Shown: positions 41,826 to 59,711, numbered from the stretch's first letter. The stretch: 64,000 bases of DNA from an uncultured Acidobacteriota bacterium (GCA_963777605.1 CAVZRV010000010.1:96001-160000); one strand, 5' to 3'. Numbers and translations: made by a program. The notes: generated by a model not told the origin, from the sequence alone.

Positions 41826-44253
41826 ATGAACACTCGCCTTGCCCGTCCATGCGGGGTCCTTCTGGTTGTTGTCTGTTTGCTTGGTCTGCTTTACGTCTCA
41901 GCGGCGGTTTCCGCCTCGGAACCGGTTGACTCTTCCTCGAAATGGGAAATCATCGGTCCCGGCGGCGGAGGCGCCCAATACATCCCCACCATCAATCCGT
42001 CCGATCCCGACCATGTCATGGTGCGCTGCGACATGACCGGCGCCTATCTCACCGAAGACGGCGGCGAGAGCTGGAGGATGTTCAACCTCCGTTCCGTTGT
42101 CCGGGACTTCGAATTTGATCCCCTCGATCCCGACACCGTCTATGCCGCCGGCACCGCCCTGTACCGGTCCTCGGACCGGGGACGCACCTGGATGCTTCTC
42201 TACCCGGACCCGGCCGATCTCGTTGGGGAGGTCATGAGGGGAGACCACGCCTCGCAGGCGTTTCGAACGCGGGACGGCGTCCTCCAATTGGACGTTTCAC
42301 AGGTGCGGGTCGATCCCGCAAATACCGACGTAATCTTTATGGGACTCAGGAAGGGGCCCGGCTCCAATCAAGTCGTCGAGTTGCTTCAGTCGACGGATCG
42401 CGGATTCAGCTGGACTGAACTGGCGGAACTCCCCGGACGGGAGGTGCTTGGGATCTTTCCGGGCTCCTGGACTTCCCGGCCCGACGAGATCACGGTTGTC
42501 ACCGACCGCTCGGTCTCCCGGGTCAGCACCCGGGACCGGTCGGTCTCTCAACTGCCCGCGCCGGCGACAAACCTCACAAACGTAGCCGGTGGGATCGCAC
42601 CGGGCGGATCGATCCTCTACCTGCTCGCCGGGGACAACGAGCGCGGCCGGCGTCCCGGTTCCAGCCTCTTTCGCTCCCGCGACCAGGGAGAGAGTTGGAA
42701 GGAAGTTTCGATCGTCCCGGTCCTTGCCGGGGTACCCGATTCCCTTCCCGCTTCCGGATTGGAATCTCTGGCAGCCAGTGAGGGAAAAGGCATGGTGGCC
42801 TATCTTTCCGTCAGGGAGGCGAGAACGATGGAATCGCGGCTTTCCCCAGCGCCGTTCCGGGATCCTCAGGACTGAGGATGGAGGCCAGTCGTGGAAGTGG
42901 GTCCTGTGTGTTTCGGGCGGCTCCATTCTGACGGAAAACTTCACTGGAGGATGGCTCTACCGCCAGCTTGGCTGGCTCGGAAATCCCTCTCATCTCGGTG
43001 TGAGTGCAAGCGATCCGAATGTCGTCTACGCTACCGACTCGGGCCGTACAATGAAGAGTGAAGACGGCGGGGAGAGCTGGAAGCAACTGATCAGCAGAGA
43101 CTTCCCCGATGGGGCTTCAACGACCCGAGGACTTGACGTTACGACGACATACGGCGTCCATTTTGACCCTTACGATCCACAACACCTGTTTATTACCTAT
43201 ACCGACATCGGTCTTTTCCACTCCGTTGACGGGGGACAGTCATGGACGGAAGCGATTGCCGGAATTCCCCGCCAATGGCGCAACACCTGCTACTGGCTGG
43301 AATTCGATCCCGCCGTCAGGGGGCGCATTTTCTCGGTCTGGTCCAACGTTCACGACCTGCCACGTCCGAAGATGTACCGATCCGGTAACCTGGTTAACGG
43401 AAACCAGCAGGGCGGCGTCGCGGTCTCGGGCGACGGCGGACGCTGGTGGGAATTGTTGAATCGCGGGATCCTTCAGCCCGACGGTTCGAACGCGCAGGGA
43501 ATGCGCGCCGGGGCGGTCTGCACTCACATCGTTCTCGATCCGGAAAGCCCGGCTAATTCGCGTACGCTGTACGTTACCGACTACGGCTACGGCGTCTGGA
43601 AGAGTACCGACGCGGGACGCACCTGGGCTCTCAAGAATCGCGGTCTTGACTCGAAGAATCTCTACTGCTGGCGAATCACCCGTCTGCCTTCCGGTCGACT
43701 CATCCTGCTCGTGGCGAGAGGCGGCATTGAAGGCCAGGAGGTAATTCCCGGAGCGCTCTACTCGAGTACAGACGGTGGAGAACTCTGGAATCCGCTCCCG
43801 CTTCCACCAGGCGTTACCGCCCCTAACGACCTCGTCTACGATCCGACCGACCCAGATCGACTCTACCTCAGTTGCTGGCCGCTGGCCGTCAACGGTGCCG
43901 AGAAAGGGGGCGGACTGCTGCGATCAGAAGACGGAGGCACGACCTGGGAACGGGTATTCCCCGAAGGGATGCACGTCTATGCTGCAGCCGTCAGCCCGGC
44001 GGACCCAAAAACGGTATTTCTCAACACATTTGAAGGGGCAGCCTACCGAAGTGACGATCGGGGAGAATCCTGGACGCGACTCGGAGGATATGACTTCAAG
44101 TGGGGCCACCGTCCCGTCCCCGATCCTCTGGACCCGTCTCGAATCTACCTGACGACTTTTGGGGGCAGTGTCTTCCGGGGACCAAGCACGGGAGATCCGC
44201 GAGCGAGACCGACCATCTTGAACATCCCGCCGTCGCCCTGGAATCTTCCGTAA
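41826..44253 (+). CDS. Secreted BNR/Asp-box beta-propeller protein (GH74/sortilin-like), frameshifted near 42820-42850
   Basis: Many SxDxGxTW repeats in both consecutive ORFs; IGPGGGG and CDMTGAY. Confidence 0.85.
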
Positions 44254-44277: not shown

Positions 44278-45552
44278 TTAAACGGTACTGGGGTCCACGA
44301 CCCGGCCCATGAAGAGCATCGCGCCGGTGGCCCGGTCATAGATTACGAAGAGGAACGGGCGATCGATTCGAATCGTTGGAGGCATCGAAGTGACCCCCAT
44401 CGTGATTCCGGTGGCGGCAGCCGCCTCGGTGCCCCGCTCATTCACATCGATATAAGCTCCTTGAAAAACCCTTTGTATAAAGAGATCGGCCTGGTCCGAG
44501 ATTCCCGAAAAATCGGCCCGTTCAGGATTGAACGCCAGCGCCATTCCCATTTGCTTCAGAGCCCCGGACAACTCCAGGTCACTCTTGATCCTGAATCGCG
44601 GCATGCTGAGTTCGATATACGTCGATTCCAACCTGCTGAGGCGCTCCCGAAACCAATCCGAGGATATCGTCCGGCTCATCTCCGGGAAGTCCTCCATGCG
44701 CGAGGGGAGAAAGACCGCCATCGCAATCCTCTCGCCACGATAAGGAAGGTCCACGACCGTCCCATCTTCTGACGATTCAACCCGGTAAGCTCCGGTCCGC
44801 CGCATGAAAGGCACCTGAACGGTGTCGCCGCCGAGCCTGAGAAAATCACCCGGACGGGTGGCCCTTTCGTCAAAGGGATCCTTCCAGGTGCCCAGGAAAT
44901 AGATGGCATTGGTCAAAACCAGGCGGGTGTCCCGATTCAGGCTACCTGGAGGCAACAGTGGGTCGATCTTTCCTCCTGTCCGTTCTGCTGTCCAACGGTT
45001 GATCTGGTTCCTCGCATCGTCGAACTCCGAGGCAAAATCGAGCGGGTTCAAATCGGCATCGAACTCGCGCTTCAGGAGAGAAACGAAGTCGACCTTCAAC
45101 TGGAGCCCCTCCTGGACCCAGAGGGCATTCGCAATCTCGAGAGCAATATCTCCTGACTCCGAGGCTTGTCCCAGGGAGTCGAACAGGTTGTGGACAGCGC
45201 CGGCGATCACTTCAGAATCCGCGGCCTGCTCCTTCTCCTCGCCAGGTGCCAGAACCGAGGTCATTTCCGCCCTGGTTTTCCCATCCGCTCCGGCAGCGGT
45301 CATTGCGAGCGCGGCGTACACGCTGAAGGGCGAGCTGACGCTATCTTTATCGGTAGTTCCGGTGCGCTGAAAGAGTTCGATTGCAAACCGGTTCACGGCG
45401 TCACCGATGTTCAAAGCTGGTGGTTTTCCAGCCGGGTCCTGGCCGGTTGTACCCGGTCCCGGTGTCAGGGCGGCGCCGACCTCCGGTCGCTGACACCCCA
45501 ACATAAGGATGCTTATCAGAATCAGGGAGAGTGGATTATATAATTCGATCAC
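44278..45552 (-). CDS. Serpin, probable lipoprotein
   Basis: SPFSV, INRW, LTNAIYFLGTW, VNERGTEAAAAT, DRPFLFVI, LFMGRV; lipobox MLGC. Confidence 0.95.
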   Translation of the reverse strand: MIELYNPLSLILISILMLGCQRPEVGAALTPGPGTTGQDPAGKPPALNIGDAVNRFAIELFQRTGTTDKDSVSSPFSVYAALAMTAAGADGKTRAEMTSVLAPGEEKEQAADSEVIAGAVHNLFDSLGQASESGDIALEIANALWVQEGLQLKVDFVSLLKREFDADLNPLDFASEFDDARNQINRWTAERTGGKIDPLLPPGSLNRDTRLVLTNAIYFLGTWKDPFDERATRPGDFLRLGGDTVQVPFMRRTGAYRVESSEDGTVVDLPYRGERIAMAVFLPSRMEDFPEMSRTISSDWFRERLSRLESTYIELSMPRFRIKSDLELSGALKQMGMALAFNPERADFSGISDQADLFIQRVFQGAYIDVNERGTEAAAATGITMGVTSMPPTIRIDRPFLFVIYDRATGAMLFMGRVVDPSTV

Positions 45553-45897: not shown

Positions 45898-48800
45898 ATG
45901 CCCAATTTCACAACGCCCGGCTTCCCGGTACCGTCCCGCTCCCGACACCGCATTCTGATGTGCGCGTCGATTGTTTTTGCCGCCCTCGTTGCAACGGCCG
46001 CGCTTGCCGGAAACGCGACGCAGGTCAGCGTCGAGGTCGGCCAAATCACCGTCCCGACTTACACGTTCGGTGAGGCTCCGAACACCGCACCGCTGTTTGA
46101 AGTCGGGAATGGCAAAGGGATCTATCCTTACGGGCCACTCGATCGCGACAGCTTGAGTGCCAGCCCGCAGCCGATAAGCTACCAGTCGATCACGATCGAG
46201 AACGATTACCTCCGGGTCGTGTTTCTACCCGAACTGGGCGGGCGAATCTGGTCCGCGTGGGACAAGCAGACCCAACGCAACCTGTTCTATACCGACTCCG
46301 TCATCAAGCCGAGCGCCTACAACCAGAGGGGTGGATGGCCCGTTGGGAACCTCGAGGTCTACGGGCCGTTCGATGCCCACATGCTGACCTGGCCTGGCGA
46401 GCCATGGCCCTGGACGATCCAGCACCATTCGGACGGGAGTGCCACCGTGATCCTGTCCCATATCGACCATTTCTTCCGGGACAAACTGTTCATGGAGGTC
46501 ACGCTTCGTCCTGGTCGTTCGTTTGTCGAGCTCACCCTTCGCCTCCACAATCGGAACCAGCTTCCAAACCGGTATCTTCTCTGGACCAACGCCGGGATTC
46601 CAGCCACTGAGGGCACCCGCTTTGTTTATCCAATGACCCGCACGATCGGGCACGACACGGAAGACTTCGGTTCCTGGCCGGTATACCGCGGGGTCGATCT
46701 CAGCTGGTACCGCAACAACAAGACTATGCTGGGTGTCTTCGGGTTGGACGTCTATGATGACTTCCTTGCCGCCTACGACTACACTGCCGACCACGGTACG
46801 GTCTGCGCCAAGAACCACCAGATTGCACGAGGAATCAAGACCTGGACGTGGGGAACCGGACAGACCGGAATGCGCCACCTGGAAAGCTATGCCGATTCCG
46901 GTCTGCCCTACATCGAAGTCCAGAGCGGTCGTTTCGTCTGGGACGGCAACTACGAGTTCATTGCACCTGGCGAAAGCGACGGATGGACCGAGTACTGGTA
47001 TGGGGCCAGCGGCCTCGGAGGGCTGACCACGGCTACCCCAGACCTGGCCGTCCGCCTGGCGACCGGTCCAGACGGCGTCGAAGCCGTCCTGTTGCCAACC
47101 GGGGACTTCTCCGATGCGTCGTTCTCCTGGGCTCCCGACGGGAGGCCAGAGTATGCCACCGAGCCGATCAACCTCCGGGCCGGCCAGCCTCTTCGAAAAC
47201 TGGTCCCCGTTGAGACATCCGGGCAAGTCAAGAGCATCCGGGTGCGAGTTACTTCAGGTGACGCGACCCTGCTCGACTATCGCTTCAACCTGGACGGCGA
47301 ACCTCCGAAGGGCGAATTTGCAGCCGATGCCATCCCGCGGGATTTTGGTCCCTCCGACTCCCTGACGCTCGAAGAACTATACCTGAAGGGGCTCACCGAG
47401 GAGAAACTCGGCCGCGCAGACCGTGCCGAGGCGGCGTACCGGGAAGCTCTCCAGCGGGATCCATTGTATGTTGCGCCCAACCTCCGCCTTGGATTGATAG
47501 CCCTGTCCCGGTTCCAGGAAGAAGAGGCTCTCAAGTTCTTCAACCAGGCCCTCGATCGGGCCCCTTCCGACAGCGAACTCCACTACCTGATCGGAGTCAC
47601 CCTGACCCGAATGGGCCGGGACGAAGACGCCCGCGAACACTTTTACCGAGTGATCCCTTCGGCAGCCCAGTTCGATCAGCGCGACTTCAACCTGGGACTG
47701 ATCGCCCTCCGAAAGGGTGACGTCGGCCAGGCCCTGGGCCTCCTCCAGACCGCTGCCAAGCGGCTGCCGGAACAGTCATCGGCCCAACAGGCGTATGCCT
47801 TTTCCCTTCGAAGAGAGGACCGCCGCACTGAAGCTGAGCCGGTCATCGCCCGCCTGGTGTCAGCAGATCCAACAAGTGCATTTGCGGCCGCAGAACTGGG
47901 CTTTTGGGACTCCTGGCCCGAGGCCCGGGTCGAGGCCCTGGATCAGGTGCTGGCAAGCCATCCGCAGGGTTACCTCGAACTCGCCACCGAATACATGAAA
48001 CTTGGTGCCTGGAAAGAAGTCCAATTCCTGGCCGACCTGGCAATTCGGGCTGCCTCCCGTAATGGAGGGTCCCCCTACCCGATCCTGCTCTATTATCGGG
48101 CCGACGCACTCGATCACCTTGGAGAGACCGACCAAGCCAGGGCGCTGCTGGCTGACGCCTCCAGGACTGACGTGAAGATCAGTTTTTTCCCGTTCCGTCG
48201 GGAGACCGTCTCGGTACTGGAGGCTTGCCTCGAACTCCTCCCCCGCGATTCAAACGCGGCCTCCTTACTGGGCGACCTCTACTACTCGCGGCAGCGGCAC
48301 GACGAGGCGATCAAATTGTGGGAGGCCGCCGCCGATTGGAATCCGGCCCACTTCTCCTCACTTCGGAACCTGGGCTGGGCATTCCTTGCCCGCGGAGATT
48401 CGGAACGCGCCGTGGGATTCCTGGAACGTGCACTCCAGGTCCGGCCCGACCACCTCGAGACCGCCACAAGCCTCACCCAGCTTTACGCACGGCTGGGCAA
48501 AACCGACCAGGCGCTTGCCGTGATTGAGCAGTTGAACATCCGCAACCCGAAGAACGACCAGGTTGTCGAACTCACGGCCCGGATTCGTGCCCTGGCCGGT
48601 GACGTCAACGGATCTCTTTCTCTGCTGAACGATCACCAGTTTGGCATCCGTCATCAGTCCTATTCCCTGCTTCATCTCTACCAGAGCGTACAGCTTCTCA
48701 AGTCAGTTGAGGAATTCCGGAAAGGGGCGATCCAGGAGGCCCTCCTTCACGTCGATGCCGCCGCCCACGTTCCCGCCAACCTGGGGGTTGACGACTTCGC

Positions 48801-49221
48801 TGCATTGAAGAGCAGCCGGCTGCTTGCCTTCCGGGCGCTTCTGCTCGAGGCGTCCGGGGACCGAGACCGGTCATTGGAGGCCTGGAATGCCGCCGCCGAA
48901 ACGGTGGACCAGGACTTCGACGGCGAAGGACTTTTCCGAGCCATTGCCCTCGCTCACATCGGCAAGCGGGAAAGTGCGGCCCGGTGGTTTACTGAATTCG
49001 AGCAGGTCAATCCGACAAGGCAGAAGGACAACGACGCCGCCGTTCGCATCCACGCTACTTACCTCGCGGGCATCTACGCAATCTACCGCGGGGAATCCCG
49101 GAAAGGCCTTGAGGGCTTCAATCGAGCCCTCGACGGTGACGCATCCGATATGATGGTGAGACATGCAATAGCTGCCTTTGACGCCGGGATCCTTTCCGGA
49201 CTGCCGCTTCCCACGCGCTAG
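45898..49221 (+). CDS. DUF5107 domain + TPR repeat protein (YphG-like), exported
   Basis: IENDYLRVVFLPELGGRI, WTNAG, KTWTWG, YIEVQSG, WTEYWY, followed by TPR helices. Confidence 0.88.
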   Translation: MPNFTTPGFPVPSRSRHRILMCASIVFAALVATAALAGNATQVSVEVGQITVPTYTFGEAPNTAPLFEVGNGKGIYPYGPLDRDSLSASPQPISYQSITIENDYLRVVFLPELGGRIWSAWDKQTQRNLFYTDSVIKPSAYNQRGGWPVGNLEVYGPFDAHMLTWPGEPWPWTIQHHSDGSATVILSHIDHFFRDKLFMEVTLRPGRSFVELTLRLHNRNQLPNRYLLWTNAGIPATEGTRFVYPMTRTIGHDTEDFGSWPVYRGVDLSWYRNNKTMLGVFGLDVYDDFLAAYDYTADHGTVCAKNHQIARGIKTWTWGTGQTGMRHLESYADSGLPYIEVQSGRFVWDGNYEFIAPGESDGWTEYWYGASGLGGLTTATPDLAVRLATGPDGVEAVLLPTGDFSDASFSWAPDGRPEYATEPINLRAGQPLRKLVPVETSGQVKSIRVRVTSGDATLLDYRFNLDGEPPKGEFAADAIPRDFGPSDSLTLEELYLKGLTEEKLGRADRAEAAYREALQRDPLYVAPNLRLGLIALSRFQEEEALKFFNQALDRAPSDSELHYLIGVTLTRMGRDEDAREHFYRVIPSAAQFDQRDFNLGLIALRKGDVGQALGLLQTAAKRLPEQSSAQQAYAFSLRREDRRTEAEPVIARLVSADPTSAFAAAELGFWDSWPEARVEALDQVLASHPQGYLELATEYMKLGAWKEVQFLADLAIRAASRNGGSPYPILLYYRADALDHLGETDQARALLADASRTDVKISFFPFRRETVSVLEACLELLPRDSNAASLLGDLYYSRQRHDEAIKLWEAAADWNPAHFSSLRNLGWAFLARGDSERAVGFLERALQVRPDHLETATSLTQLYARLGKTDQALAVIEQLNIRNPKNDQVVELTARIRALAGDVNGSLSLLNDHQFGIRHQSYSLLHLYQSVQLLKSVEEFRKGAIQEALLHVDAAAHVPANLGVDDFAALKSSRLLAFRALLLEASGDRDRSLEAWNAAAETVDQDFDGEGLFRAIALAHIGKRESAARWFTEFEQVNPTRQKDNDAAVRIHATYLAGIYAIYRGESRKGLEGFNRALDGDASDMMVRHAIAAFDAGILSGLPLPTR

Positions 49222-49418: not shown

Positions 49419-49434
49419 TGGCACCTTGTATGCA
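49419..49434 (+). promoter_or_regulatory. Sigma54 -24/-12 promoter of the cytochrome operon
   Basis: TGGCAC-CTTGT-ATGCA; palindromes TGCAA-TTG-TTGCA (49372-49384) and GCCGAAATCTCGGC upstream. Confidence 0.72.
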
Positions 49435-49554
49435 TAACACGGCAGCACTTTAGATTTTCGTCAATGAAATGACTGGGGACTACCTGTGGCGTTAGGTGGC
49501 TGTTGCCTTTCCTGTGGCAGTCTCCAAACGGACACAGTTGCTTATGAGGAGTTT

Positions 49555-50445
49555 GTGATAAGAAGCTCAGCCGGGCGGCAGTTCAACCTCTTTGGAGTCT
49601 GCCTTTCAATCATCATAGCCGGCTACGTGACAGGACTCCTGGCTGTCGCCTATCGAGGCTATGACTACTACTTGACCCCGCTCAACGATCGGGCTTTTCA
49701 CCAGGGGCACTCCGAACTGAAACCGTCCGGAAAAATCGGGCATCGGCTTGGAACGGTCGGCGGAATCCTGATGCTGCTGACTTTTGCCTACTCGATCCGA
49801 AAGCGTTCATCTCTCCTGCAGCGAATTGGCACCCAGAAGCAATGGCTCCAGGTCCACATCTGCTTCGGACTCGGAGGTCCAATCCTGGTGGTCTTTCACA
49901 CCACCGGGAAACTCGGCGGCCTGGCGGCAATCGGTTTCTACTCGACCCTTGCCATGGTCGTCTCCGGCATCTTCGGGCGCTACCTCTACTCCAAGATTCC
50001 ACGCACGCGCAAGGGAAACGAGATGTCCCTGATCCAGATCGAACAGGAGTTTGCCGACCTGGTAAGCCGACTGGGCGGAGATCACGGAGGGAACGAACTC
50101 CTCGATGCCGTCGAATCATACCTGTCACAGGTCAGGAAACGCTCCCTTGGCCTCGGACAGGCCCTGGCCGTGGCACTCTGGGACGATCTCAAGAGTCCGC
50201 TTCGGGTTATCCAGGCGTGGAACATCGCCGCTCACCAACACGCCACGTTTAGGATCCAGTTCAGGACAACCCGACTCATCCTGAAACAGAGACGATTGCT
50301 GAAGAAATTGACGGTGATCGAGGCAAGCCAGCGCCTTTTCTCCTACTGGCACATCTTCCACCGACCTTTTACGATCCTCGCATCGGTACTCATCAGCGTT
50401 CACGTCGCGGTGGCCACTTACTTCGGGTACGGAGTCGGCTTGTGA
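49555..50445 (+). CDS. Polytopic membrane protein, ferric-reductase / cytochrome-b-like
   Basis: GAGGAG RBS + GTG; 5-6 TM with His in GHRLG, WLQVH, VFHT, YWHIFHRP and ISVHV. Confidence 0.8.
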   Translation: MIRSSAGRQFNLFGVCLSIIIAGYVTGLLAVAYRGYDYYLTPLNDRAFHQGHSELKPSGKIGHRLGTVGGILMLLTFAYSIRKRSSLLQRIGTQKQWLQVHICFGLGGPILVVFHTTGKLGGLAAIGFYSTLAMVVSGIFGRYLYSKIPRTRKGNEMSLIQIEQEFADLVSRLGGDHGGNELLDAVESYLSQVRKRSLGLGQALAVALWDDLKSPLRVIQAWNIAAHQHATFRIQFRTTRLILKQRRLLKKLTVIEASQRLFSYWHIFHRPFTILASVLISVHVAVATYFGYGVGL

Positions 50446-52310
50446 TCATTGCCCGGCTCTTTCCTGCCCTGTTGATTCTCTCAACCGGGCCTCTCGCCGC
50501 CCAAGGCCTCGAGTCTCTGGTTTCCCCCGGCACGTTGAGCCGGGCCCACGCAAACCTCTCTGGACTCGACAACTGCCAGCGCTGTCACACTCCCGGTGAA
50601 GGAGTCACCTCGAGCAAGTGCCTTTCCTGCCACACCGAGATTGCCGAGCGAATTCGTGAAGGGCGAGGTCTCCACCGAGAGGAACATTCCGACAACTGTC
50701 AAAGCTGCCATCCTGAACACCGGGGTGAAGAAGCCCAGATGACTCCATGGGATCCGACCAGCTTCGATCACGCCGAGACCGGCTATCGGCTGGAAGGCTT
50801 TCACTCCGAGGTGAAGGCATGCGATCAGTGCCACACGCCAGAACGATCACAGAAACGAGAAACGACCAAGTCCTTTCTGCTCCGATCGGACTCCTGTACG
50901 ACCTGTCACAACGACGCCCACAAAGGGGTGCTTGGACCGGGTTGCGAGCGCTGCCACAGCGTCAAACGGCACTTCAAGTCGGTCGACTTCGACCACTCAC
51001 GGGCCGCCTTCCCGCTCAGAGGCGCCCACGCTAAGGTGGCCTGCTCCCGCTGTCACGTGGACAGCCGCTGGAAAGGAATCGCCTTCTCGCAATGCCTCGA
51101 TTGCCACGCCAACCGACATCGTCCATCGCTGGGCAGCGACTGCACTCAATGCCACACGGTCAGCTCCTGGAAGATTGCGGATGCCTCAACAAGGTTTCAC
51201 CAGGCCGGCTCCGCCTTTCCCCTGCGAGGCGGACACGCAGAGGTGGCCTGCTCCAAGTGCCACCTCAACGGCCAGTTCAAAGGCATCGCCTTTCAGGAGT
51301 GCCGGAACTGTCACACCAGCAGCCCTCACCAGGGGCAGTTCAGTCAAGATTGCAAATCGTGCCATACCGAAGACAACTTCACGAAGACGACGTTTCGGCA
51401 CGAATCGGCTCGGTTTCGCCTCAACGGGAAGCACCTGGGAGTCGCATGCAGCAAGTGCCATCCTAGGGAGAAGGTCGAATTCGCCGAGAAGACGGTTGCG
51501 TTCACCCGCTATCGCCCACTTTCGACCGAATGCCGTGCCTGTCACGATGACATCCACCTTGGGCAGTTCAGCCAACCCTGCGCCAAATGCCATTCGACCG
51601 GAGGCTTCGGCTTGAGCCAGATCTCCTTCTCGCACAACACCGACTCCGACTTTGTTCTCAAGGGAAGTCACATCGGCCTCGTATGCGGGCGCTGCCACAA
51701 ATCGGAGAGGGGTACGTTTCCTGCCGGGTTTGGACAGGCGGTCCGGTTTCTCCCCATCTCTCCTACCTGTGAGACCTGTCACCCAGACCAGCATGGGGGG
51801 CAACTGGGCGATCAATGCGCATCCTGTCACACGGTTGAACACTTCAAACCGGCATCGGGGTTCAACCATCGAATGGCGCGCTTTCAACTCACCGGCAAGC
51901 ACCAGGATCTCCCCTGCGCCGACTGTCACCCGAGAGTAAAGCGTGTGCCGTCCTCGGGAGAAACCTTGATGCGGACCCTCTACCGGCCCTTGCGCAAAGA
52001 GTGCAGCAGCTGTCACAAGGATCCTCATCGCCGGGCGGACCAAGCCTCATGTGACGAGTGCCATACCTCGAAAACCTTCGAGGTTAGAAACTTCAACCAT
52101 TTTGAGACGTCGTTCGCGCTGATGGGACGACACGCCAGCCTGGCCTGCGAGCGCTGTCACACCCAGACGAACTGGAACGGCAAAGTGGTGCTTACCTTCG
52201 CCCACGTTCGCCGTGAATGCCAGGATTGCCACAAATCCCCCCATCGGTCTCGTTACGGCGAGTGTGGTCGCTGTCATGTCACGACAACCTGGGTGATCAG
52301 TGATTTTTAG
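50442..52310 (+). CDS. 24-heme c-type cytochrome (8 triheme modules)
   Basis: 24 CxxCH counted; signal peptide; repeating FxH...FxLxGxH. Confidence 0.95.
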   Translation: MIIARLFPALLILSTGPLAAQGLESLVSPGTLSRAHANLSGLDNCQRCHTPGEGVTSSKCLSCHTEIAERIREGRGLHREEHSDNCQSCHPEHRGEEAQMTPWDPTSFDHAETGYRLEGFHSEVKACDQCHTPERSQKRETTKSFLLRSDSCTTCHNDAHKGVLGPGCERCHSVKRHFKSVDFDHSRAAFPLRGAHAKVACSRCHVDSRWKGIAFSQCLDCHANRHRPSLGSDCTQCHTVSSWKIADASTRFHQAGSAFPLRGGHAEVACSKCHLNGQFKGIAFQECRNCHTSSPHQGQFSQDCKSCHTEDNFTKTTFRHESARFRLNGKHLGVACSKCHPREKVEFAEKTVAFTRYRPLSTECRACHDDIHLGQFSQPCAKCHSTGGFGLSQISFSHNTDSDFVLKGSHIGLVCGRCHKSERGTFPAGFGQAVRFLPISPTCETCHPDQHGGQLGDQCASCHTVEHFKPASGFNHRMARFQLTGKHQDLPCADCHPRVKRVPSSGETLMRTLYRPLRKECSSCHKDPHRRADQASCDECHTSKTFEVRNFNHFETSFALMGRHASLACERCHTQTNWNGKVVLTFAHVRRECQDCHKSPHRSRYGECGRCHVTTTWVISDF

Positions 52311-52313
52311 AGC

Positions 52314-54032
52314 ATGCATGAGGAGAATCCATTGAACCGCAATTTGATTCGCTTTGCCGGACAGGCCCGGGTTCGCCTCTCGGGCGTGATTCTTGGACTT
52401 CTCGGGCTGCTGGCCTGCCCTCTTCTGGCCGCCGAAACCAGGCCCAAGTCGCCAGCTATCTCAGGAGTCGTGAAGGATCCCTCCGGATTCCTCATCCCCG
52501 GCTGCTCCGTCTCGCTAGTCACAACCGAGCTCCAACAGCTGAACCAGACGCTGACCAGCGACCTTGGACAATTCACCTTTGAAAACGTTCAGCCGGGTAG
52601 CTACGTTGTCGATGTCCAAGCAGCGGGATTCAAGGACCGGCGTGTCGAAAATGTCCTCCTGACCTCAGACCAGGCAGTCAAGCTCGAGATTGTCCTTGAA
52701 CTGGCGAGCCGGACCGACCAGGCGGAAGTGGTCGCCCAACGGGAAGAGGCGGGAGAGGAGACCAAGCTCAAGCTGATCGACCATCCCCTCGATCCCCCTG
52801 AATTCATGCGGCAGGAACTTCCTCGTCAGCCGTTACTGAAGCGGGGTCGCCTTTACTCCGACTGGTTCGGGATTCGGACCGGCGATCGATTTGTGAACCA
52901 ACTCAGCAACCGTGCCAAGATGGAGTTCGGAGAACCCGGCCTGGGCTGGAACGCCCGTTTCGATTTTCGCGATCGGGTCACCCTCGGGGGCAGCACATCC
53001 CACATCCTGAGCGTTTACGATGCCCGCCTGGTCTATGACAATGTTCGGCATCCGCTCTATGCATCCGTCGGCCAGATGAACCTTTACGATACGGCCGGCA
53101 TCGGGGAACTCCTGGGGGGCCTCTTCGGAGTGAGACCAACCACCCGGCTCCTGGTTGGGGGCTACGGGGGACTTAAACCCGACCTTTACCGAACCCAGGT
53201 AGACCCGGCATTCAGAAAGTACGGCCTCTTCGCTCGCTACGTCGGCCCCAAGGCCCAGAGTTTCTCGATCAGCTACAATCAGTTGCGATACTCGGGGAAC
53301 ACCGAACGGAGTTATCTCTATTTCAACGGACTGACCAACGTCGGTGACCGGGCGGTCCTCTACGGGAACGCCGAGTTCGAACTCGGGTCCCACATCCGGT
53401 CCTCGGACCGCCTTTCGCGCTTGTTTCTGAACGGTCGCTTCGACCTGAGCCGGCGGTTCGACCTGATCGCGAACTACAGCAGCGGAAAAGGCCTCGACTT
53501 TCACCGGTTTCTCCTGGAGCGGGCTCAGGATCCTTTGGGCAACCAGAACGAACTGGAGCGCTTCTATTACAACTCCCAGTACGGCATCCGCCTCCGCTAT
53601 CGCCTGTCCGACAACTGGCGTGTGTTCTTCGGTCAACGGATGAGCGAGCGGAAGGATATCTCGATCCAGAACCGGACCACTCAGCTCGGAGTCACGGCTT
53701 CGCGGATTCGCGATCTCGGACTATCTCTCTATGCCAACTACAACATCAACCGGGGCGATGCCTCGGAGTCCGATTCGTTCTACCTTTCGATCTCAAAGAC
53801 ACTCGGGAAACATTCTTGGAGCACGAGTTACTCGACATCGTTTAACGGCCTGCGATTCAACAGTGCGGCTGGCGTTCCCGAGGTGGTCCACCTGGCGTCG
53901 CGAAGCACGCTTTTCAACGAACTCTTCTTCGTTATCAACCGGACTCTTGCCCTTTCATTCCAGCACGAACACACATTTGGTCTGATCCAGGGGGAGGACC
54001 TCTTCTTCGTCCGTTTCATTTTGAGGATGTAG
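52314..54032 (+). CDS. Probable outer-membrane beta-barrel with N-terminal carboxypeptidase-regulatory-like domain
   Basis: Signal peptide; ISGVVKDPSG...GQFTFENVQPGSY; then aromatic/Gly-rich alternating strands ending LFFVRFILRM. Confidence 0.75.
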   Translation: MHEENPLNRNLIRFAGQARVRLSGVILGLLGLLACPLLAAETRPKSPAISGVVKDPSGFLIPGCSVSLVTTELQQLNQTLTSDLGQFTFENVQPGSYVVDVQAAGFKDRRVENVLLTSDQAVKLEIVLELASRTDQAEVVAQREEAGEETKLKLIDHPLDPPEFMRQELPRQPLLKRGRLYSDWFGIRTGDRFVNQLSNRAKMEFGEPGLGWNARFDFRDRVTLGGSTSHILSVYDARLVYDNVRHPLYASVGQMNLYDTAGIGELLGGLFGVRPTTRLLVGGYGGLKPDLYRTQVDPAFRKYGLFARYVGPKAQSFSISYNQLRYSGNTERSYLYFNGLTNVGDRAVLYGNAEFELGSHIRSSDRLSRLFLNGRFDLSRRFDLIANYSSGKGLDFHRFLLERAQDPLGNQNELERFYYNSQYGIRLRYRLSDNWRVFFGQRMSERKDISIQNRTTQLGVTASRIRDLGLSLYANYNINRGDASESDSFYLSISKTLGKHSWSTSYSTSFNGLRFNSAAGVPEVVHLASRSTLFNELFFVINRTLALSFQHEHTFGLIQGEDLFFVRFILRM

Positions 54033-54040
54033 GTGTCTCG

Positions 54041-55495
54041 ATGAACTACCTCGTTTGGTTTGGAATATTCCTGGTACTCGCCATTCTCGCCACCGTTCCG
54101 GTGCACTTTCACCTTTCCTCCATGAGTAAGAAGGAGTCCGGATCGGACCGCGGGCCCGGAAGCGGAGTTAAACTTCGGGATTGCCCGGGCTGCGGCAGCC
54201 CGACGCCGGTCGATGCGGCGTTTTGCGACAAGTGCGGCGTTCCGATGATGCTCTGGTCGTTGAAGCAAGCTCGGGAGGTCCAGGGAGAGCAGCAGAACCA
54301 GGGAAAAGCGGTACCCATCATCGATCAAGATGTCTGCATCGGATGCAGTGCCTGTGTCAACGCCTGCGATGAAGCCGTGCTGGAAATCGTGGCCGGTAAG
54401 TCCGCCGTCACCAATGTGAGTGCCTGCACCAGTGCCGGGACCTGTGTCGAAGTCTGCCCGACCGGCGCTTGCCAGCTTGGGGGCGGCGGTGCCGCCCGTC
54501 GAGTCGAGGTGCCGCAGATCGACGGGGACTTCCAGACCAACCAGGCCGGTGTCTATGCCGTCGGCGAACTCGGTGGCCTGGGACTAATCAAAAGCGCAAT
54601 CGCGGAAGGCCAAATGGTAATCGAGCGGATCGCCCCCAACCATGAACCGCGAGAGGGGGTGCTCGACCTGGTGATCGTCGGATCGGGACCTGCGGGACTG
54701 TCGGCGGCCCTGGCGGCCAAAACCAAGGGCCTGTCGGCCATCATCCTTGAGCAGGGGAACCTCGCCAACACCATCCGGAAGTACCCCAATCGGAAGATCG
54801 TCATGGCGGAACCGATCAAGATCCCCATGTACGGCTCGCTCTGGATCTCGGACGCACCCAAGGAAACTCTCCTCGGAGTCTGGCAGACCATCATCGACTC
54901 ATCCGGGATCGCCGTGAACGAAAACGAGAAAGTCCTTTCCATCCAGCGCCAGGACGATGGAACCTTCGTCACTGGAACGCCCAAAGGCACATACCACAGC
55001 CAGAAGGTCATTCTCGCCATCGGGAAGCGCGGAACTCCCAATGAACTCCCGGCGCCCGGAGCCGGGTTGCCTAAGGTCCTTTACACCCTGACCGACACGG
55101 CCCAATACCGTGACAGCAGGATCCTTGTCGTCGGCGGGGGAGACTCGGCGGCCGAGGCAGCGATTACGCTGGCTCGCCAGCCCGGCAACGAGGTGGTCAT
55201 GTCCTACCGGCGCGCTGAGTTCACTCGCCTGAAGCCCAAGAACCTGGAGGGAATCGAGTCAAGCACTGCATCCGGAGAAGTTCGCCTGCTGCTCGGAAGC
55301 CAGGTTACAGAGGTGACCCCGTCCACCGTCTCAGTTCTGCTTTCGTCCGGAGAAGTTCAGACCATTGAGAACGATTACGTGTTCGCTTTTCTGGGCGGAA
55401 CCTCGCCGAAGAGCTTCCTGGCAGAGATCGGTGTCGAGATGGTGACCAAGGAAGTCGCAATGGAGCTTCAGAAAGGGCATCATGAAGCGGTTTAG
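54041..55495 (+). CDS. Membrane-anchored zinc-ribbon / ferredoxin / FAD-NAD(P)H oxidoreductase (TrxR-like fold)
   Basis: N-terminal TM; CPGC..CDKC; CIGCSACVNAC; CTSAGTCVEVCP; VYAVGE; GSGPAG; GGGDSA; SYRR. Confidence 0.9.
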   Translation: MNYLVWFGIFLVLAILATVPVHFHLSSMSKKESGSDRGPGSGVKLRDCPGCGSPTPVDAAFCDKCGVPMMLWSLKQAREVQGEQQNQGKAVPIIDQDVCIGCSACVNACDEAVLEIVAGKSAVTNVSACTSAGTCVEVCPTGACQLGGGGAARRVEVPQIDGDFQTNQAGVYAVGELGGLGLIKSAIAEGQMVIERIAPNHEPREGVLDLVIVGSGPAGLSAALAAKTKGLSAIILEQGNLANTIRKYPNRKIVMAEPIKIPMYGSLWISDAPKETLLGVWQTIIDSSGIAVNENEKVLSIQRQDDGTFVTGTPKGTYHSQKVILAIGKRGTPNELPAPGAGLPKVLYTLTDTAQYRDSRILVVGGGDSAAEAAITLARQPGNEVVMSYRRAEFTRLKPKNLEGIESSTASGEVRLLLGSQVTEVTPSTVSVLLSSGEVQTIENDYVFAFLGGTSPKSFLAEIGVEMVTKEVAMELQKGHHEAV

Positions 55496-58400
55496 ACCTT
55501 CCCAGTGGGCCGTCCTTCTGGTACTTCCGGTGCTTCTCTGCTCGGTGGTTCCAGCCCAGGAGGGTTCGCGGGGCCGGGTTTTCGAGCACGACAAAACGAA
55601 CTTTCCGCTCACCGGCCGGCACCGGACAATAGCTTGCGCCGAGTGCCACCTCGGCGGGCAACTTGAAGGCACTCCGGTCGCGTGCGAAGCCTGCCACTGG
55701 GACCGCCGCCAGGACGACCGTTACAACCTCCAGCTTGGAATCAACTGCGCCGAGTGTCACACCACGGAAGGCTGGAAGGCGGTTTCAGCAGACGCCTGGA
55801 ACCACGAGGCACGCACCGGGTTCCGCCTCGAGGGCTATCACCGGTCAATCGAGTGCACCGACTGTCACACAGACGGATTCGAGGGACTCTCCCCTGATTG
55901 CATTTCCTGTCATCAAGGCGACTTTGAGCGGGCAGAGAGCCCCAATCACGTCGCCCTGGCCTTCCCGAATGACTGCGTGCTCTGTCACACCAGCCAGACC
56001 AGTTGGGGCGGCGCAGTTTTCAATCACGCGAATTTCCCCTTGCGCGGGCAGCACCAGACGGTGGCCTGCGTGACTTGTCACAAAGACGGCGTCTTTGAGG
56101 GCTTGGCCTCGGAGTGCATTGCCTGTCACCGTCCCGATTTCGAGTCCACAACCGACCCGAACCATGTCACCGCTGGCTTCCCCACCGATTGCGTCAATTG
56201 CCACGGAGATTCGGCAACCAGCTGGGACAACGCCGACTTCGATCACTCCAGCTTTCCCCTCCGCGGCAAGCACGAGACCGCATTGTGCAGTTCCTGCCAC
56301 GCCGATGGTGTCTTCGCCGGCCTTGCCTCGGACTGCATCTCGTGTCACCGATCGGAATTCGAATCAACAACCGATCCGAACCATGTCGCCGCCGGATTCT
56401 CCAACGATTGCGCCTCCTGCCATGGCGGCCAGGCAACCGCCTGGGACGGCGCAACCTTCGAGCATGACAACTGGCCACTGCGCGGCCAGCACCAGGCCAC
56501 CGCCTGCGCCACCTGCCACAAGGACGGGGTGTTTGCAGGCCTGGCCTCGGAGTGTATCTCTTGTCACCGTCCCGAGTTTGAAGCGACGACCGATCCCAAC
56601 CACGTCACCGCGGGCTTTCCCACGGATTGCGTCACCTGCCACGGAGATTCGGCAACCAGTTGGGACAATGCCGACTTTAATCACGACACATTCCCTCTGC
56701 GCGGCAAGCATGAGACCGCATTGTGCAGTTCCTGCCACAAGGATGGTGTCTTCGCCGGGCTGGCCTCGGACTGCATCTCGTGTCACCGATCGGAATTCGA
56801 ATCAACAACCGATCCGAACCATGTGGCGGCCGGATTCTCCAACGACTGCGTCTCCTGTCATGGCGACCAGGCAACCGCCTGGGACGGCGCAACCTTCGAG
56901 CATGACAACTGGCCACTGCGGGGCCAGCACCAGACCACGGCGGCCTGCGCCACCTGCCACAAGAACGGCGTCTTTGCGGGTCTCGCCTCCGATTGTGTCT
57001 CCTGCCACCGGTCCGAGTTCGATTCCACGACGGACCCGAACCACGTCACTGCGGGATTCCCCACGGATTGCGTGACCTGCCACGGGACTCCGCCACCCGG
57101 TGGGACAAGGCCACCTTCGATCACGACTCCTGGCCTTTGAAAGGACAGCACCAGACGGTGGCCTGCGCCACCTGTCACAAGAACGGCGTCTTTGCGGGTC
57201 TCGCCTCCGATTGTGTCTCCTGCCACCGGTCCGAGTTCGATTCCGCGACGGACCCGAACCAGTCAGTTGCTGGATTCCCCACGGATTGCGTGACCTGCCA
57301 TGGAGACTCCGCCACCACCTGGGACAAGGCCACCTTCGACCACGACTCCTGGCCTTTGAAAGGACAGCACCAGACGGTGGCCTGCGCCACCTGTCACAAG
57401 AACGGCGTCTTTGCGGGTCTCGCCTCCGATTGTGTCTCCTGCCACCGGTCCGAGTTCGATTCCGCGACGGACCCGAACCACGTCGTTGCTGGATTCCCCA
57501 CGGATTGCGTGACCTGCCACGGAGACTCCGCCACCACCTGGGACAATGCCACCTTCGACCACGACTCCTGGCCTTTGAAAGGACAGCACCAGACGGTGGC
57601 CTGCGCCACCTGTCACAAGAACGGCGTCTTTGCGGGTCTCGCCTCCGATTGTGTCTCCTGCCACCGGTCCGATTTCGATTCCGCGACGGACCCGAACCAC
57701 GTCACTGCGGGATTCCCTACGGATTGCGTGACCTGCCATGGTGACTCCGCCACCCGGTGGGACGGGGCCACCTTCGATCATGACTCCTGGCCTTTGAAGG
57801 GACAGCACCAGACGGTGGCCTGCGCCACCTGTCACAAGGATGGAGTCTTCGCCGGACTGGCCTCGGAGTGCGTTTCCTGCCACCGATCCGATTTCGATTC
57901 TGCGACGGACCCGAACCACGTCACTGCTGGATTCCCCACGGATTGCGTGACCTGCCATGGTGATTCCGCCACCCGCTGGGACAGGGCCACCTTTGATCAT
58001 GACTCCTGGCCTTTGAAGGGACAGCACCAGACGGTGGCCTGCGCCACCTGTCACAAGAACGGCGTCTTTGCGGGACTCGCCTCCGACTGTGTCTCCTGCC
58101 ACCGATCCGAGTTCGATTCCGCGACGGACCCCAACCACGTCAGTGCGGGATTCCCCACGGATTGCGTGACCTGCCATGGTGATTCGGCAACCCGGTGGGA
58201 CGGGGCCACCTTTGATCATGACTCCTGGCCTTTGAAGGGACAGCATCAGACGGTGGCCTGCGCCACCTGTCACAAGGATGGAGTCTTCGCCGGACTGGCA
58301 TCGGAGTGCGTTTCCTGCCACCGATCCGAGTTCGATTCTGCGACGGACCCGAACCACGTCATGCGGGATTTCCTACGGATTGCGTGACCTGCCATGGTGA

Positions 58401-58848
58401 TTCGGCAACCCGGTGGGACGGGGCCACCTTTGACCATTCGGTTTGGCCCCTGCAGGGCGCACACCGGACCCTCAGTTGCCAGACTTGTCACAGCGCTGGA
58501 TACAACCTGCCTCGAGACTGCTACGGCTGTCATGCCGCCGATTACAACTCGACACAAAGTCCCAATCATTCGGCCTCGGGATTCCCGACAACGTGTGACT
58601 CCTGCCACTTCCCCGAACATGTCTACTGGAACCAGGCCGTTTTTCAGCATGACTTCCCGATCACTTCTGGGGCCCACAGGAATGTTGAGTGCCAGGAATG
58701 TCACCTCACCGCCAACTTCCTCGAATTCAGCTGCATCGACTGCCATGAGCACGCAAAAAATGAAACCGATCGACACCACCGAGAGGTCGGCGGCTACGTT
58801 TACAACAGCCAGGCGTGCTATTCCTGCCACCCCAATGGGCGCGAGTAA
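55482..58848 (+). CDS. Giant 45-heme c-type cytochrome (about 1120 aa; 15 triheme modules), split by 1-bp deletions near 57086 and 58362
   Basis: 21+17+7 CxxCH in three consecutive frames; neighbouring repeat copies show the missing bases (cacgg[a]gactcc; gtca[c]tgcggga); signal peptide. Confidence 0.9.
56020..58440 (+). repeat. About 11 tandem copies of a 219-bp (73-aa) triheme unit
   Basis: Near-identical DSATxWDxATFDHDSWPLKGQHQTVACATCH...CVSCH...CVTCHG; shadow ORFs recur at 219- and 438-bp offsets. Confidence 0.95.
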
Positions 58849-58859
58849 AGGAAACAACT

Positions 58860-59711
58860 ATGAGAAATACAGCTCTGATTTTGGTTGCGTTACTTGTCCT
58901 AACCACCTGGACTGCTTGCAACTCCCAGGCCGATCTGGTGACTGCAGAAACAGGCGCAACAGGAATCCAGGTGGTTGCGGCTCACACCGCGGACACTACG
59001 CAGGCGCCACAGCCCGCATCTACTTCAATGCCGCCTGAAACGGAAGATCTTCCCAAGAGCGAGGGCCAGGATCAGTTGATCCGTGGAACGGTCACCGAGG
59101 TGATCGAAGCGAGCCAGTACGTCTACGTCTGCGTAAATTCCGGAAGCGAATCTCGATGGGTCGCCACCAACTCGCTCGACGTAAAATCTGGAGACTCCGT
59201 GGAGTTCGAGCAGGGCCTCCTGATGAGAAACTTCAAGAGCCCCTCAATGGGCAGGGTCTTTCCGGCGATCCTCTTTGTTCAGGGTCTGCAGGTCACCAGT
59301 CGCCCGACTGTCCAGGTCACAGCAGTGAAAGGACTCCCCTCCGGGCACCCCTCCGTCCCCAAGAGCGCGCGTACCGCGGCCCGGGAGGTAGCCCGTCCCA
59401 ACCCGGGTTCGATTCCCCGGCTGAAGGATACGCTGACAATTGAGGCAATCCAGAAAGATCAGGAGGCTCTCAACGGAAAGGCGGTGTCGGTGGTCGGAAT
59501 GGTCACGAAAGTCAGCGCCAACATCATGGATCGTAACTGGATTCACCTGGTTGATGAAGACGGGCGCGAGCTGGTGGTCACCTCCAGCGCTACCGCTGTT
59601 CCCGGCTCCATCCAGGTCGCCCGGGGAACTCTCGTTGTCGGCAAGGCTTTTGAAACCGGGTACTACGTTCCACTTCTCCTCGAGAATTCAACGTTGGATT
59701 CCGCTTCCTGA
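58860..59711 (+). CDS. NrfJ-like double OB-fold lipoprotein
   Basis: Lipobox WTAC; GTVTEVIEASQYVYV...WVA...MRNFKSPSMGRVF; LPSGHP; IMDRNWIHL. Confidence 0.7.
   Translation: MRNTALILVALLVLTTWTACNSQADLVTAETGATGIQVVAAHTADTTQAPQPASTSMPPETEDLPKSEGQDQLIRGTVTEVIEASQYVYVCVNSGSESRWVATNSLDVKSGDSVEFEQGLLMRNFKSPSMGRVFPAILFVQGLQVTSRPTVQVTAVKGLPSGHPSVPKSARTAAREVARPNPGSIPRLKDTLTIEAIQKDQEALNGKAVSVVGMVTKVSANIMDRNWIHLVDEDGRELVVTSSATAVPGSIQVARGTLVVGKAFETGYYVPLLLENSTLDSAS

Follow-up and report, generated by a model that had tools for sequence, protein, structure and literature searches.

A PCC3-type porin-cytochrome cassette with a candidate NAD(P)H-oxidising module in an Acidobacteriota-like bacterium

To our knowledge, the porin-cytochrome conduits that have been characterised are fed from quinols. 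What would feed a conduit whose genes enclose that of an NAD(P)H-dependent flavoprotein? The question is raised by a cassette in a 64,000-nucleotide stretch of DNA (the window; GCA_963777605.1, CAVZRV010000010.1:96001-160000) from an uncultured Acidobacteriota bacterium. Six plus-strand genes at 49555-59711 encode, in order, an inner-membrane protein (IMP), a 24-heme cytochrome, an outer-membrane barrel, a membrane-anchored NAD(P)H/FAD/Fe-S flavoprotein (FLV), a large repeat cytochrome and a lipoprotein-like protein. We consider it probable, at roughly 0.6, that the cassette encodes a PCC3-type heme wire fed outward by a split NOX-like NAD(P)H-oxidising module, in parallel to an Mtr/CbcL-type conduit encoded elsewhere in the genome. 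An earlier annotation (the sequence-only reading) had proposed a trans-envelope conduit with NAD(P)H input and an undescribed architecture. The conduit remains the best reading, and comparative genomics strengthened the case for its input, but the architecture is not new, as four of the six genes form a PCC3 cluster (He et al., 2017; PMC5566968), and the genome also has a quinol route.

The genes are tightly packed, with junctions that are, in order, a 4-base overlap, gaps of 3 and 8 bases, a 14-base overlap and a gap of 11. A count of CxxCH motifs gave 69 (24 + 21 + 17 + 7), as originally reported, and the Acidobacteriota-like origin agrees with the nearest named relatives, at 65% identity. 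IMP, FLV, the barrel and the lipoprotein-like gene are each single-copy in the genome.

According to the open-access text of He et al. (PMC5566968), PCC3 clusters encode a porin, a periplasmic cytochrome with a median of 21 hemes, an extracellular cytochrome with a median of 34 and up to 85 hemes, and an IMP of ~300 residues with SGXXG and two WX3HX13H motifs. This four-gene definition is retained in later open-access texts (PMC9900912, PMC12442390, PMC8788666, PMC11429942, PMC13386937). By every feature testable here except barrel homology, the cassette is of PCC3 type. Its 296-residue IMP (49555..50445, +; start taken from database protein P0001, with a GAGGAG ribosome site upstream) has five predicted transmembrane (TM) helices, two WX3HX13H pairs (W97-H101-H115 and W265-H269-H283) in the TM3 and TM5 positions expected of PCC3 and, in TM4, the SGXXG motif (SGIFG, S137-G141). 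The second gene (50442..52310, +) encodes a c-type cytochrome with a signal peptide, 24 CxxCH and 52 His at 25.9 residues per heme, within the ~21-27 hemes of PCC3 periplasmic cytochromes. Two metagenome loci, L146 and L149, with 21 + 46 and 21 + 63 hemes (the second pair being the counts given for one PCC3 host in PMC5566968), encode homologs of IMP (28-29% identity, E 2e-25 and 8e-22), of the 24-heme protein (29-32% over ~560 residues to their 21-heme proteins, E 1e-71 and 3e-68) and of FLV (40-42%). The barrel had no BLAST match at E ≤ 1e-3 among the neighbouring open reading frames (ORFs) of either locus, which are cut at the locus edge.

The founding PCC3 clusters are Slit_0867-0870 and Slit_1446-1449 of Sideroxydans ES-1 (PMC5566968; Hoover et al., PMC9900912), which we compared through the literature and listed peptides, not full sequences. 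One listed Slit_1447 peptide has, by eye, an FDH...TG-F/Y-x-L repeat like that of the 24-heme protein. Slit_0866 (D5CPG3), which adjoins the first cluster, is described as a 430-residue FAD pyridine nucleotide-disulfide oxidoreductase (PMC12016527), and four of its five peptides listed in the supplement rows match FLV by eye. A Lentimicrobium cluster with 61 and 20 hemes, said in the available text to lack synteny to known modules (PMC13013709), may also be of the PCC3 type. In a 2026 peat preprint (10.64898/2026.05.27.727921), the Acidobacteriota conduits described have 8-13 hemes and form a different set. The published four-gene model omits a cytoplasmic NAD(P)H/FAD/Fe-S partner; in the open-access text searched, no paper assigns PCC3 an NAD(P)H input.

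FLV (54041..55495, +) consists of an N-terminal TM helix, a four-Cys ribbon, a two-cluster ferredoxin domain and a FAD/NAD(P)H body like that of YpdA and thioredoxin reductase (TrxR), as judged from family profiles, motifs and structural relatives. The best structural relative of the body is YpdA/Bdr (PDB 7A76, 7A7B; E 8e-35), and TrxR-type ferredoxin-NADP+ reductases are also among its relatives. The body is circularly permuted: when set against the YpdA-like protein that the genome also encodes, profile positions 163-198 match the C-terminus and positions 210-470 the N-terminus. FLV scored 167 bits against TIGR04018, whose cut-off is 340. The Cys of the YpdA motif GGGPC is replaced by Ala in 100 of 101 FLV homologs (Ala218 here; rows drawn from 120 listed matches), and the CxxC active site is absent from FLV; with no active Cys, FLV was ruled out as a bacillithiol or thioredoxin reductase. 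FLV has GGGDSA and an invariant Arg390, which we take to resemble the NADPH site of TrxR/YpdA enzymes. The second Fe-S motif is short of one Cys, the position being His in 56 and Ala in 29 of the same 101 homologs and Ala here, which suggests a His-ligated or [3Fe-4S] exit cluster. Since no twin-arginine signal was evident, we take the FLV domains to be cytoplasmic. A long, permuted FLV relative lies in a Pseudoalteromonas glycosyltransferase/DUF2064 cluster that lacks any IMP (L111:7971-10325).

The four His of the IMP motifs are invariant in 104 aligned homologs (of 120 listed), and both WX3HX13H motifs are kept in 99 of them. IMP also carries a ~110-residue basic helical insert, and its AlphaFold model is all-helical (pLDDT 89.6). 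Loop charge bias would place the N-terminus, loop 2 and the long insert in the cytoplasm and thus one heme near each membrane face, so that the His pairs would hold a cytoplasm-side and a periplasm-side b-heme. The ferric reductase domain PF01794 scored 21 bits against IMP, below its cut-off of 28, and matched 18 of the 104 homologs at E ≤ 0.01. A Foldseek search with the IMP model found no NOX TM domain at E ≤ 0.001, and a PDB sequence search with the IMP profile had no match. In pairwise comparison, the NOX5 TM domain (Z 7.5, root-mean-square deviation 5.3, 154 residues aligned) and E. coli superoxide oxidase (Z 7.5, 3.3, 134 aligned) were tied with unrelated helical bundles, which dominate fold searches with this protein. 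The fused FNR-type dehydrogenase domain of NOX enzymes is absent; the YpdA-like protein here is encoded by a separate gene. Complex prediction for IMP with FLV gave a score of 0.01 (mark 0.32), which counts neither for nor against their contact. In one genome (G089), a Ser/Thr protein kinase domain precedes IMP in the same open frame (L213:9998-12232), and the gene is flanked by a 33-heme and an 8-heme cytochrome; no flavoprotein was found near it.

The case for an NAD(P)H input comes from gene neighbourhoods. In the best 80 of 588 genome loci, FLV lies within 10 kb of IMP in 68, and all 12 misses stop at a contig end. Among 61 relatives, 17 had some IMP match; the seven genomes with a strong match (E ≤ 1e-38) are precisely those seven that have FLV at full length, no more than 5 kb away. 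When FLV served as the anchor, 57 of 80 metagenome loci held an IMP, as did 23 of the 25 that are at least 12 kb long. A phylum sample of 251 genomes contained IMP in 34 and FLV (E ≤ 1e-100) in 23, 21 of which also have IMP. The other 13 IMP genomes comprise one with FLV at a contig edge, four with a long-form relative within 3 kb, four with an FNR-type reductase and four with no partner. In all, IMP is accompanied by an NAD(P)H flavoprotein in 30 of the 34 genomes (FLV in 22, the long form in four, the FNR type in four); in 18 of the 22 with FLV, the partner is on the same contig within ~6 kb, and one more is cut by a contig end. In one locus (L177), FLV and IMP are fused in a topologically compatible order.

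The partner itself varies. An FNR-type FAD/NAD(P)H/[2Fe-2S] reductase, unrelated to FLV, lies directly upstream of IMP in four otherwise typical clusters (FNR-type reductases in place of FLV: L207:6615-8108, L208:6603-8099, L209:11430-12782 and L210:4005-5621; also L100 and L101), and one also precedes distant IMPs on Methylophaga and Sphingobium plasmids. FNR is the fold used by NOX enzymes. The occurrence of two unrelated folds in one slot suggests that the requirement for an NAD(P)H reductase in the cytoplasm is conserved.

The pair also occurs in phages. Full-length FLV is present in seven of 12 viral loci; L192-L198 and L170 are the large-phage loci concerned. Of the five FLV phage records searched, the two longest, G062 (328 kb, 92% complete) and G064, also encode a 149-residue diheme IMP with both His pairs (L205:1462-1911 and L204:1003-1452), ~49 kb from FLV; the other three are fragments of 5-17% completeness. 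A search of G062 and G064 for the 24-heme protein had no match. Together, FLV and IMP are possibly a phage-borne NOX-like module. Phage FLV lies near ribonucleotide reductase and glutaredoxin-like genes; the 149-residue IMP lies among tRNA-like sequences, preceded by a small secreted barrel-like ORF.

Downstream of the predicted module, both cytochromes look like wires. The large cytochrome (55482..58848, +) is made of 73-residue repeats with three hemes and six His each (six His per three hemes in seven of eight repeats checked), has 91 His for 45 motifs and, at ~25 residues per heme and 35% T+S+A+G, lies within the 10-85 hemes and 22-39 residues per heme of repeat-rich PCC3 cytochromes. With about two His per heme, both proteins would be bis-His wires, the large one with no evident active site; a PDB sequence search with the 24-heme protein had no match. 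The 45-heme gene of the sequence-only reading does have its 45 CxxCH, but spread over three frames (21 + 17 + 7); the frame changes at single-base deletions near 57086 and 58362, both within a tandem array of 219-bp repeats. The array has eleven units, six of them 75-97% identical to one another; one unit has lost a His to a compensating indel, and another has gained 3 bases. Because of these indels and frame breaks, 45 is the heme-motif count of this assembly only. Assembly error in near-identical repeats is the likeliest source of the frameshifts. Relatives have 36 motifs in one frame (L001, a named Acidobacteriota) or a 26 + 13 split (L091, same family); programmed frameshifting was disfavoured, since break positions vary among relatives and L001 is unbroken. 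No read spanned either break in the one run examined, which contained 8% of the words. Related clusters in L052 and L055 encode single-frame cytochromes with 72 and 70 CxxCH. By position and make-up, the large cytochrome of the cassette would be the PCC3 "extracellular" cytochrome, a surface location that is also a prediction in the papers defining PCC3.

The barrel gene (52314..54032, +) encodes an N-terminal carboxypeptidase-regulatory-like beta-sandwich (PF13620, residues 49-129) followed by a region (residues 150-572, pLDDT 86.2) modelled with 22 long strands, a ~22-strand barrel. All 43 Foldseek rows shown were outer-membrane barrels, in agreement with the model and with the original call; like PCC3, the cassette thus has an outer-membrane barrel. 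He et al. also predict 22 strands for the Leptothrix cholodnii porin (PMC5566968). Our barrel profile is narrow and matched 28 of the 80 genome loci, mostly with weak scores, so this figure is no measure of barrel presence.

The sequence-only reading had argued from the absence of an MtrA-like decaheme and a quinol dehydrogenase. This holds within the cassette, but the genome has them on another contig. At G000:C29:210685-232380 (L103, L104) lies an MtrC-MtrC-MtrA-MtrB-like cluster, with two OmcA/MtrC decahemes (TIGR03507, twice) and a DmsE/MtrA decaheme (TIGR03508) above cut-off; its MtrB-like barrel scored 23.6 against a PF11854 cut-off of 23 on direct scan, and the genome-wide PF11854 search gave none above cut-off. 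The same contig encodes 19- and 11-heme cytochrome b fusions, which we take to be CbcL-like, and a NapC/NirT-like protein. With this Mtr-type cluster and its neighbours, the argument from a missing quinol dehydrogenase fails at the genome level; a conventional quinol-fed route and the cassette route appear to be present in parallel. Cytochrome c assembly proteins are encoded (three PF01578 matches), and a search of the genome for ResB had no match. In all, 36 ORFs in the genome have at least three CxxCH. Further multiheme clusters lie at G000:C11:76221-86388, C48:328-3187 and C30:20950-25583, with one decaheme followed by a GSU2204-family protein.

A model that accommodates these data is that cytoplasmic NAD(P)H, probably NADPH, would reduce FAD in anchored FLV, from which electrons would pass through a [4Fe-4S] cluster to the three-Cys cluster, then to the cytoplasm-side and periplasm-side b-hemes of IMP. 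IMP would hand them to the 24-heme periplasmic rod, and this, through the barrel, to the large repeat cytochrome and an acceptor outside, for which oxidised minerals, humic matter or another cell are candidates. Flow would most likely be outward. Electrons going outward run downhill with help from the membrane potential; to go inward they would need a donor of very low potential. Such a route would not pass through the quinone pool and would not on its own conserve energy; spending reductant in this way would fit a surplus-reductant valve or a surface reductase beside the conduit on C29.

Several observations weigh against this model. PCC3 function is stated to be untested in the available text of PMC12442390, and He et al. 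proposed from the IMP motifs that it is a quinone-active cytochrome b (PMC5566968). No flavoprotein was found in four of 34 IMP genomes: in G080 the contig ends at IMP, G089 has the kinase fusion, and in G131 and G172 the contigs are short. The second Sideroxydans cluster (Slit_1446-1449) is flanked by an HD hydrolase and an aldolase, with no flavoprotein neighbour, and it is from this cluster that PCC3 proteins were detected; Slit_1448, the counterpart of the large cytochrome, was not. Long-form FLV relatives also exist apart from IMP, in a glycosyltransferase cluster. A fusion was seen once, in L177; its linker contains a Met, and two frames could have been merged there. The related genomes are not independent, and the locus sets are best matches to our own profiles. 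Finally, no clear lipobox is present in the large cytochrome, whose gene is interrupted in this assembly.

The first competing explanation is the published one, in which the wire exchanges electrons with the quinone pool through IMP, for respiratory export or uptake (He et al., section 17; PMC5566968), and FLV has an accessory role or serves as an additional input, such as an NAD(P)H:quinone branch. The weak PF01292 matches in 10 of the 104 IMPs are consistent with it, as are the Sideroxydans cluster and the four genomes without a partner. It does not predict near-obligate linkage to two unrelated NAD(P)H reductases or an IMP-FLV pair in phages without cytochromes, and in the genome studied here CbcL-like and NapC/NirT-like quinol-side proteins already stand beside the Mtr-type cluster. 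We regard this explanation as unlikely. The same wiring could instead run inward, with electrons from an outside donor directly reducing NAD(P)+. PCC3 is found in Fe(II) oxidisers (PMC5566968), TrxR-type ferredoxin-NADP+ reductases are structural relatives of FLV, and the level of Slit_0866 was raised on magnetite at the late time point (differences of 2.35 and 2.55 with q of 0.018 and 0.003, five peptides; PMC12016527), a rise that could be read as an uptake role and thus also counts against an outward wire. Both Sideroxydans PCC3 clusters were transcribed at lower levels on Fe(II) than on thiosulfate, which argues against uptake there (PMC8788666), and most of the hosts found here belong to Bacteroidota, Ignavibacteria and Acidobacteriota, with Emticicia and Flectobacillus (Flectobacillus rivi, L071) among them as isolates. 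On general grounds, inward transfer would have to overcome both the redox gradient and the membrane potential, and no energy-coupling subunit is encoded in the cassette. We give this direction little chance.

Similarly improbable is a chain that stops in the periplasm or on the cell surface, where it would serve as an electron store or an envelope reductase (a capacitor, assimilatory metal reduction or NOX-like superoxide formation), with the barrel exporting or anchoring the large cytochrome and no respiration outside. Such an endpoint would fit a 22-strand barrel, narrower than the 26-strand barrel of MtrB, a large cytochrome with an ordinary signal peptide, and phages that retain the inner module only. 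Clusters with an IMP and no porin also exist (Table S6 of He et al.; PMC5566968). Against it, the barrel and two giant cytochromes are kept together across phyla (two proteins with at least 10 hemes in 65 of the best 80 loci), the number of repeats differs greatly, in keeping with a rod whose reach can be adjusted, and the genome encodes a type II secretin. We therefore retain the outward NAD(P)H-fed wire as our preferred model.

The surroundings of the cassette were also examined. A candidate sigma54-type -24/-12 promoter (49419..49433, +) lies 136 bases upstream of the first start, with GG and GC spaced 10 bases. This box, part of the sequence-only reading, is present, the pattern arises in 0.8% of 5000 shuffles of the 450 upstream bases, and RpoN is encoded in the genome, but it is conserved in only one of 76 related loci and one of two same-family genomes. 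A promoter and terminator scan found no plus-strand sigma70 site and no terminator behind the cassette, with counts below those of shuffles, and an Rfam search of the window, L091 and L092 had no match. L091 and L092, from the same family, share, ~260 bases upstream of IMP, a similar non-coding leader with no evident counterpart in the window. A DUF5107-TPR protein (45898-49221, +) is encoded directly upstream of the cassette, preceded by a serpin (44278-45552, -). At 41826-44253, two overlapping plus-strand ORFs in different frames resemble one frameshifted gene, hinting at further indel errors in the assembly. The last gene of the cassette (58860..59711, +) encodes a lipoprotein-like, accessory protein with a Cys after a hydrophobic N-terminus. 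The label NrfJ-like previously given to it found no support, as there was no Pfam or PDB match and a single NCBIfam row at E 0.049; its Atlas neighbours are a "GW dipeptide domain" and an "OB-fold" at 0.95. The gene is found in three of 80 loci, and also in L091 and in Emticicia (L099); in Emticicia oligotrophica DSM 17448, the whole cluster is on plasmid pEMTOL02, with IMP and FLV as EMTOL_RS21090 and RS21095.

We put at even odds the broader proposal that PCC3 is a widespread wire leading from NAD(P)H to the cell exterior without involving the quinone pool, its core being a two-gene split NOX with an interchangeable flavoprotein, mounted on rods of 20-70 hemes and standing alone in phages. 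PCC3 has been weighed as an iron oxidase candidate, a role that expression data fit poorly (PMC8788666, PMC12442390). Should NAD(P)H be its input, electrons would be expected to flow the other way, and PCC3 would be no marker of iron oxidation. Soil and sediment Acidobacteriota, Bacteroidota and Ignavibacteria would then have an uncounted electron export route, and many heterotrophs could discharge reductant outside by a route missing from models of extracellular electron transfer.

How does the cassette compare with known systems? It shares with PCC3 the motifs of the ~300-residue IMP, a 24-heme periplasmic-type cytochrome, a larger repeat-rich cytochrome, a barrel and 25-26 residues per heme. 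Unlike published PCC3, which is described as four genes with a quinone link, it has an NAD(P)H/FAD/Fe-S gene inside the operon, a lipoprotein-like gene, a barrel of an apparently different, short family with an N-terminal beta-sandwich and another gene order, in an Acidobacteriota-like host. In PCC4 and in porin-less clusters of multiheme cytochromes and IMPs (PMC5566968, Table S6), too, a membrane protein with HX13H neighbours a redox protein and multiheme cytochromes. However, PCC4 has 4-10 hemes and the Table S6 clusters mostly 7-10, with no large repeat cytochrome, compared to 24 and 45 here; PCC4 membership was ruled out, since its cytochromes have 4, 5 and 10 hemes and none is extracellular. 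The text of that paper mentions "another redox protein" beside these IMPs without naming it as an NAD(P)H input, so the link between IMP and a redox partner has not gone wholly unnoticed. Like MtrCAB and Geobacter Pcc, the cassette combines a porin with periplasmic and outer multiheme cytochromes; it was ruled out as a member of MtrCAB, as its proteins fall far below the MtrA, MtrB and MtrC family cut-offs. FLV shares the fold of its FAD/NAD(P)H body with YpdA/Bdr and TrxR-type ferredoxin-NADP+ reductases and, unlike YpdA/Bdr (TIGR04018), is circularly permuted, membrane-anchored and ferredoxin-fused. The inner module resembles NOX and ferric reductase domain enzymes in having two His pairs 13 residues apart, predicted to hold two b-hemes across the membrane, and a cytoplasmic FAD/NAD(P)H domain as the likely donor. 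Unlike those enzymes, it has its dehydrogenase on a separate gene, with a TrxR/YpdA fold and Fe-S clusters; its membrane protein has five helices and a helical insert and scores below the PF01794 cut-off, and its acceptor would be a cytochrome wire.

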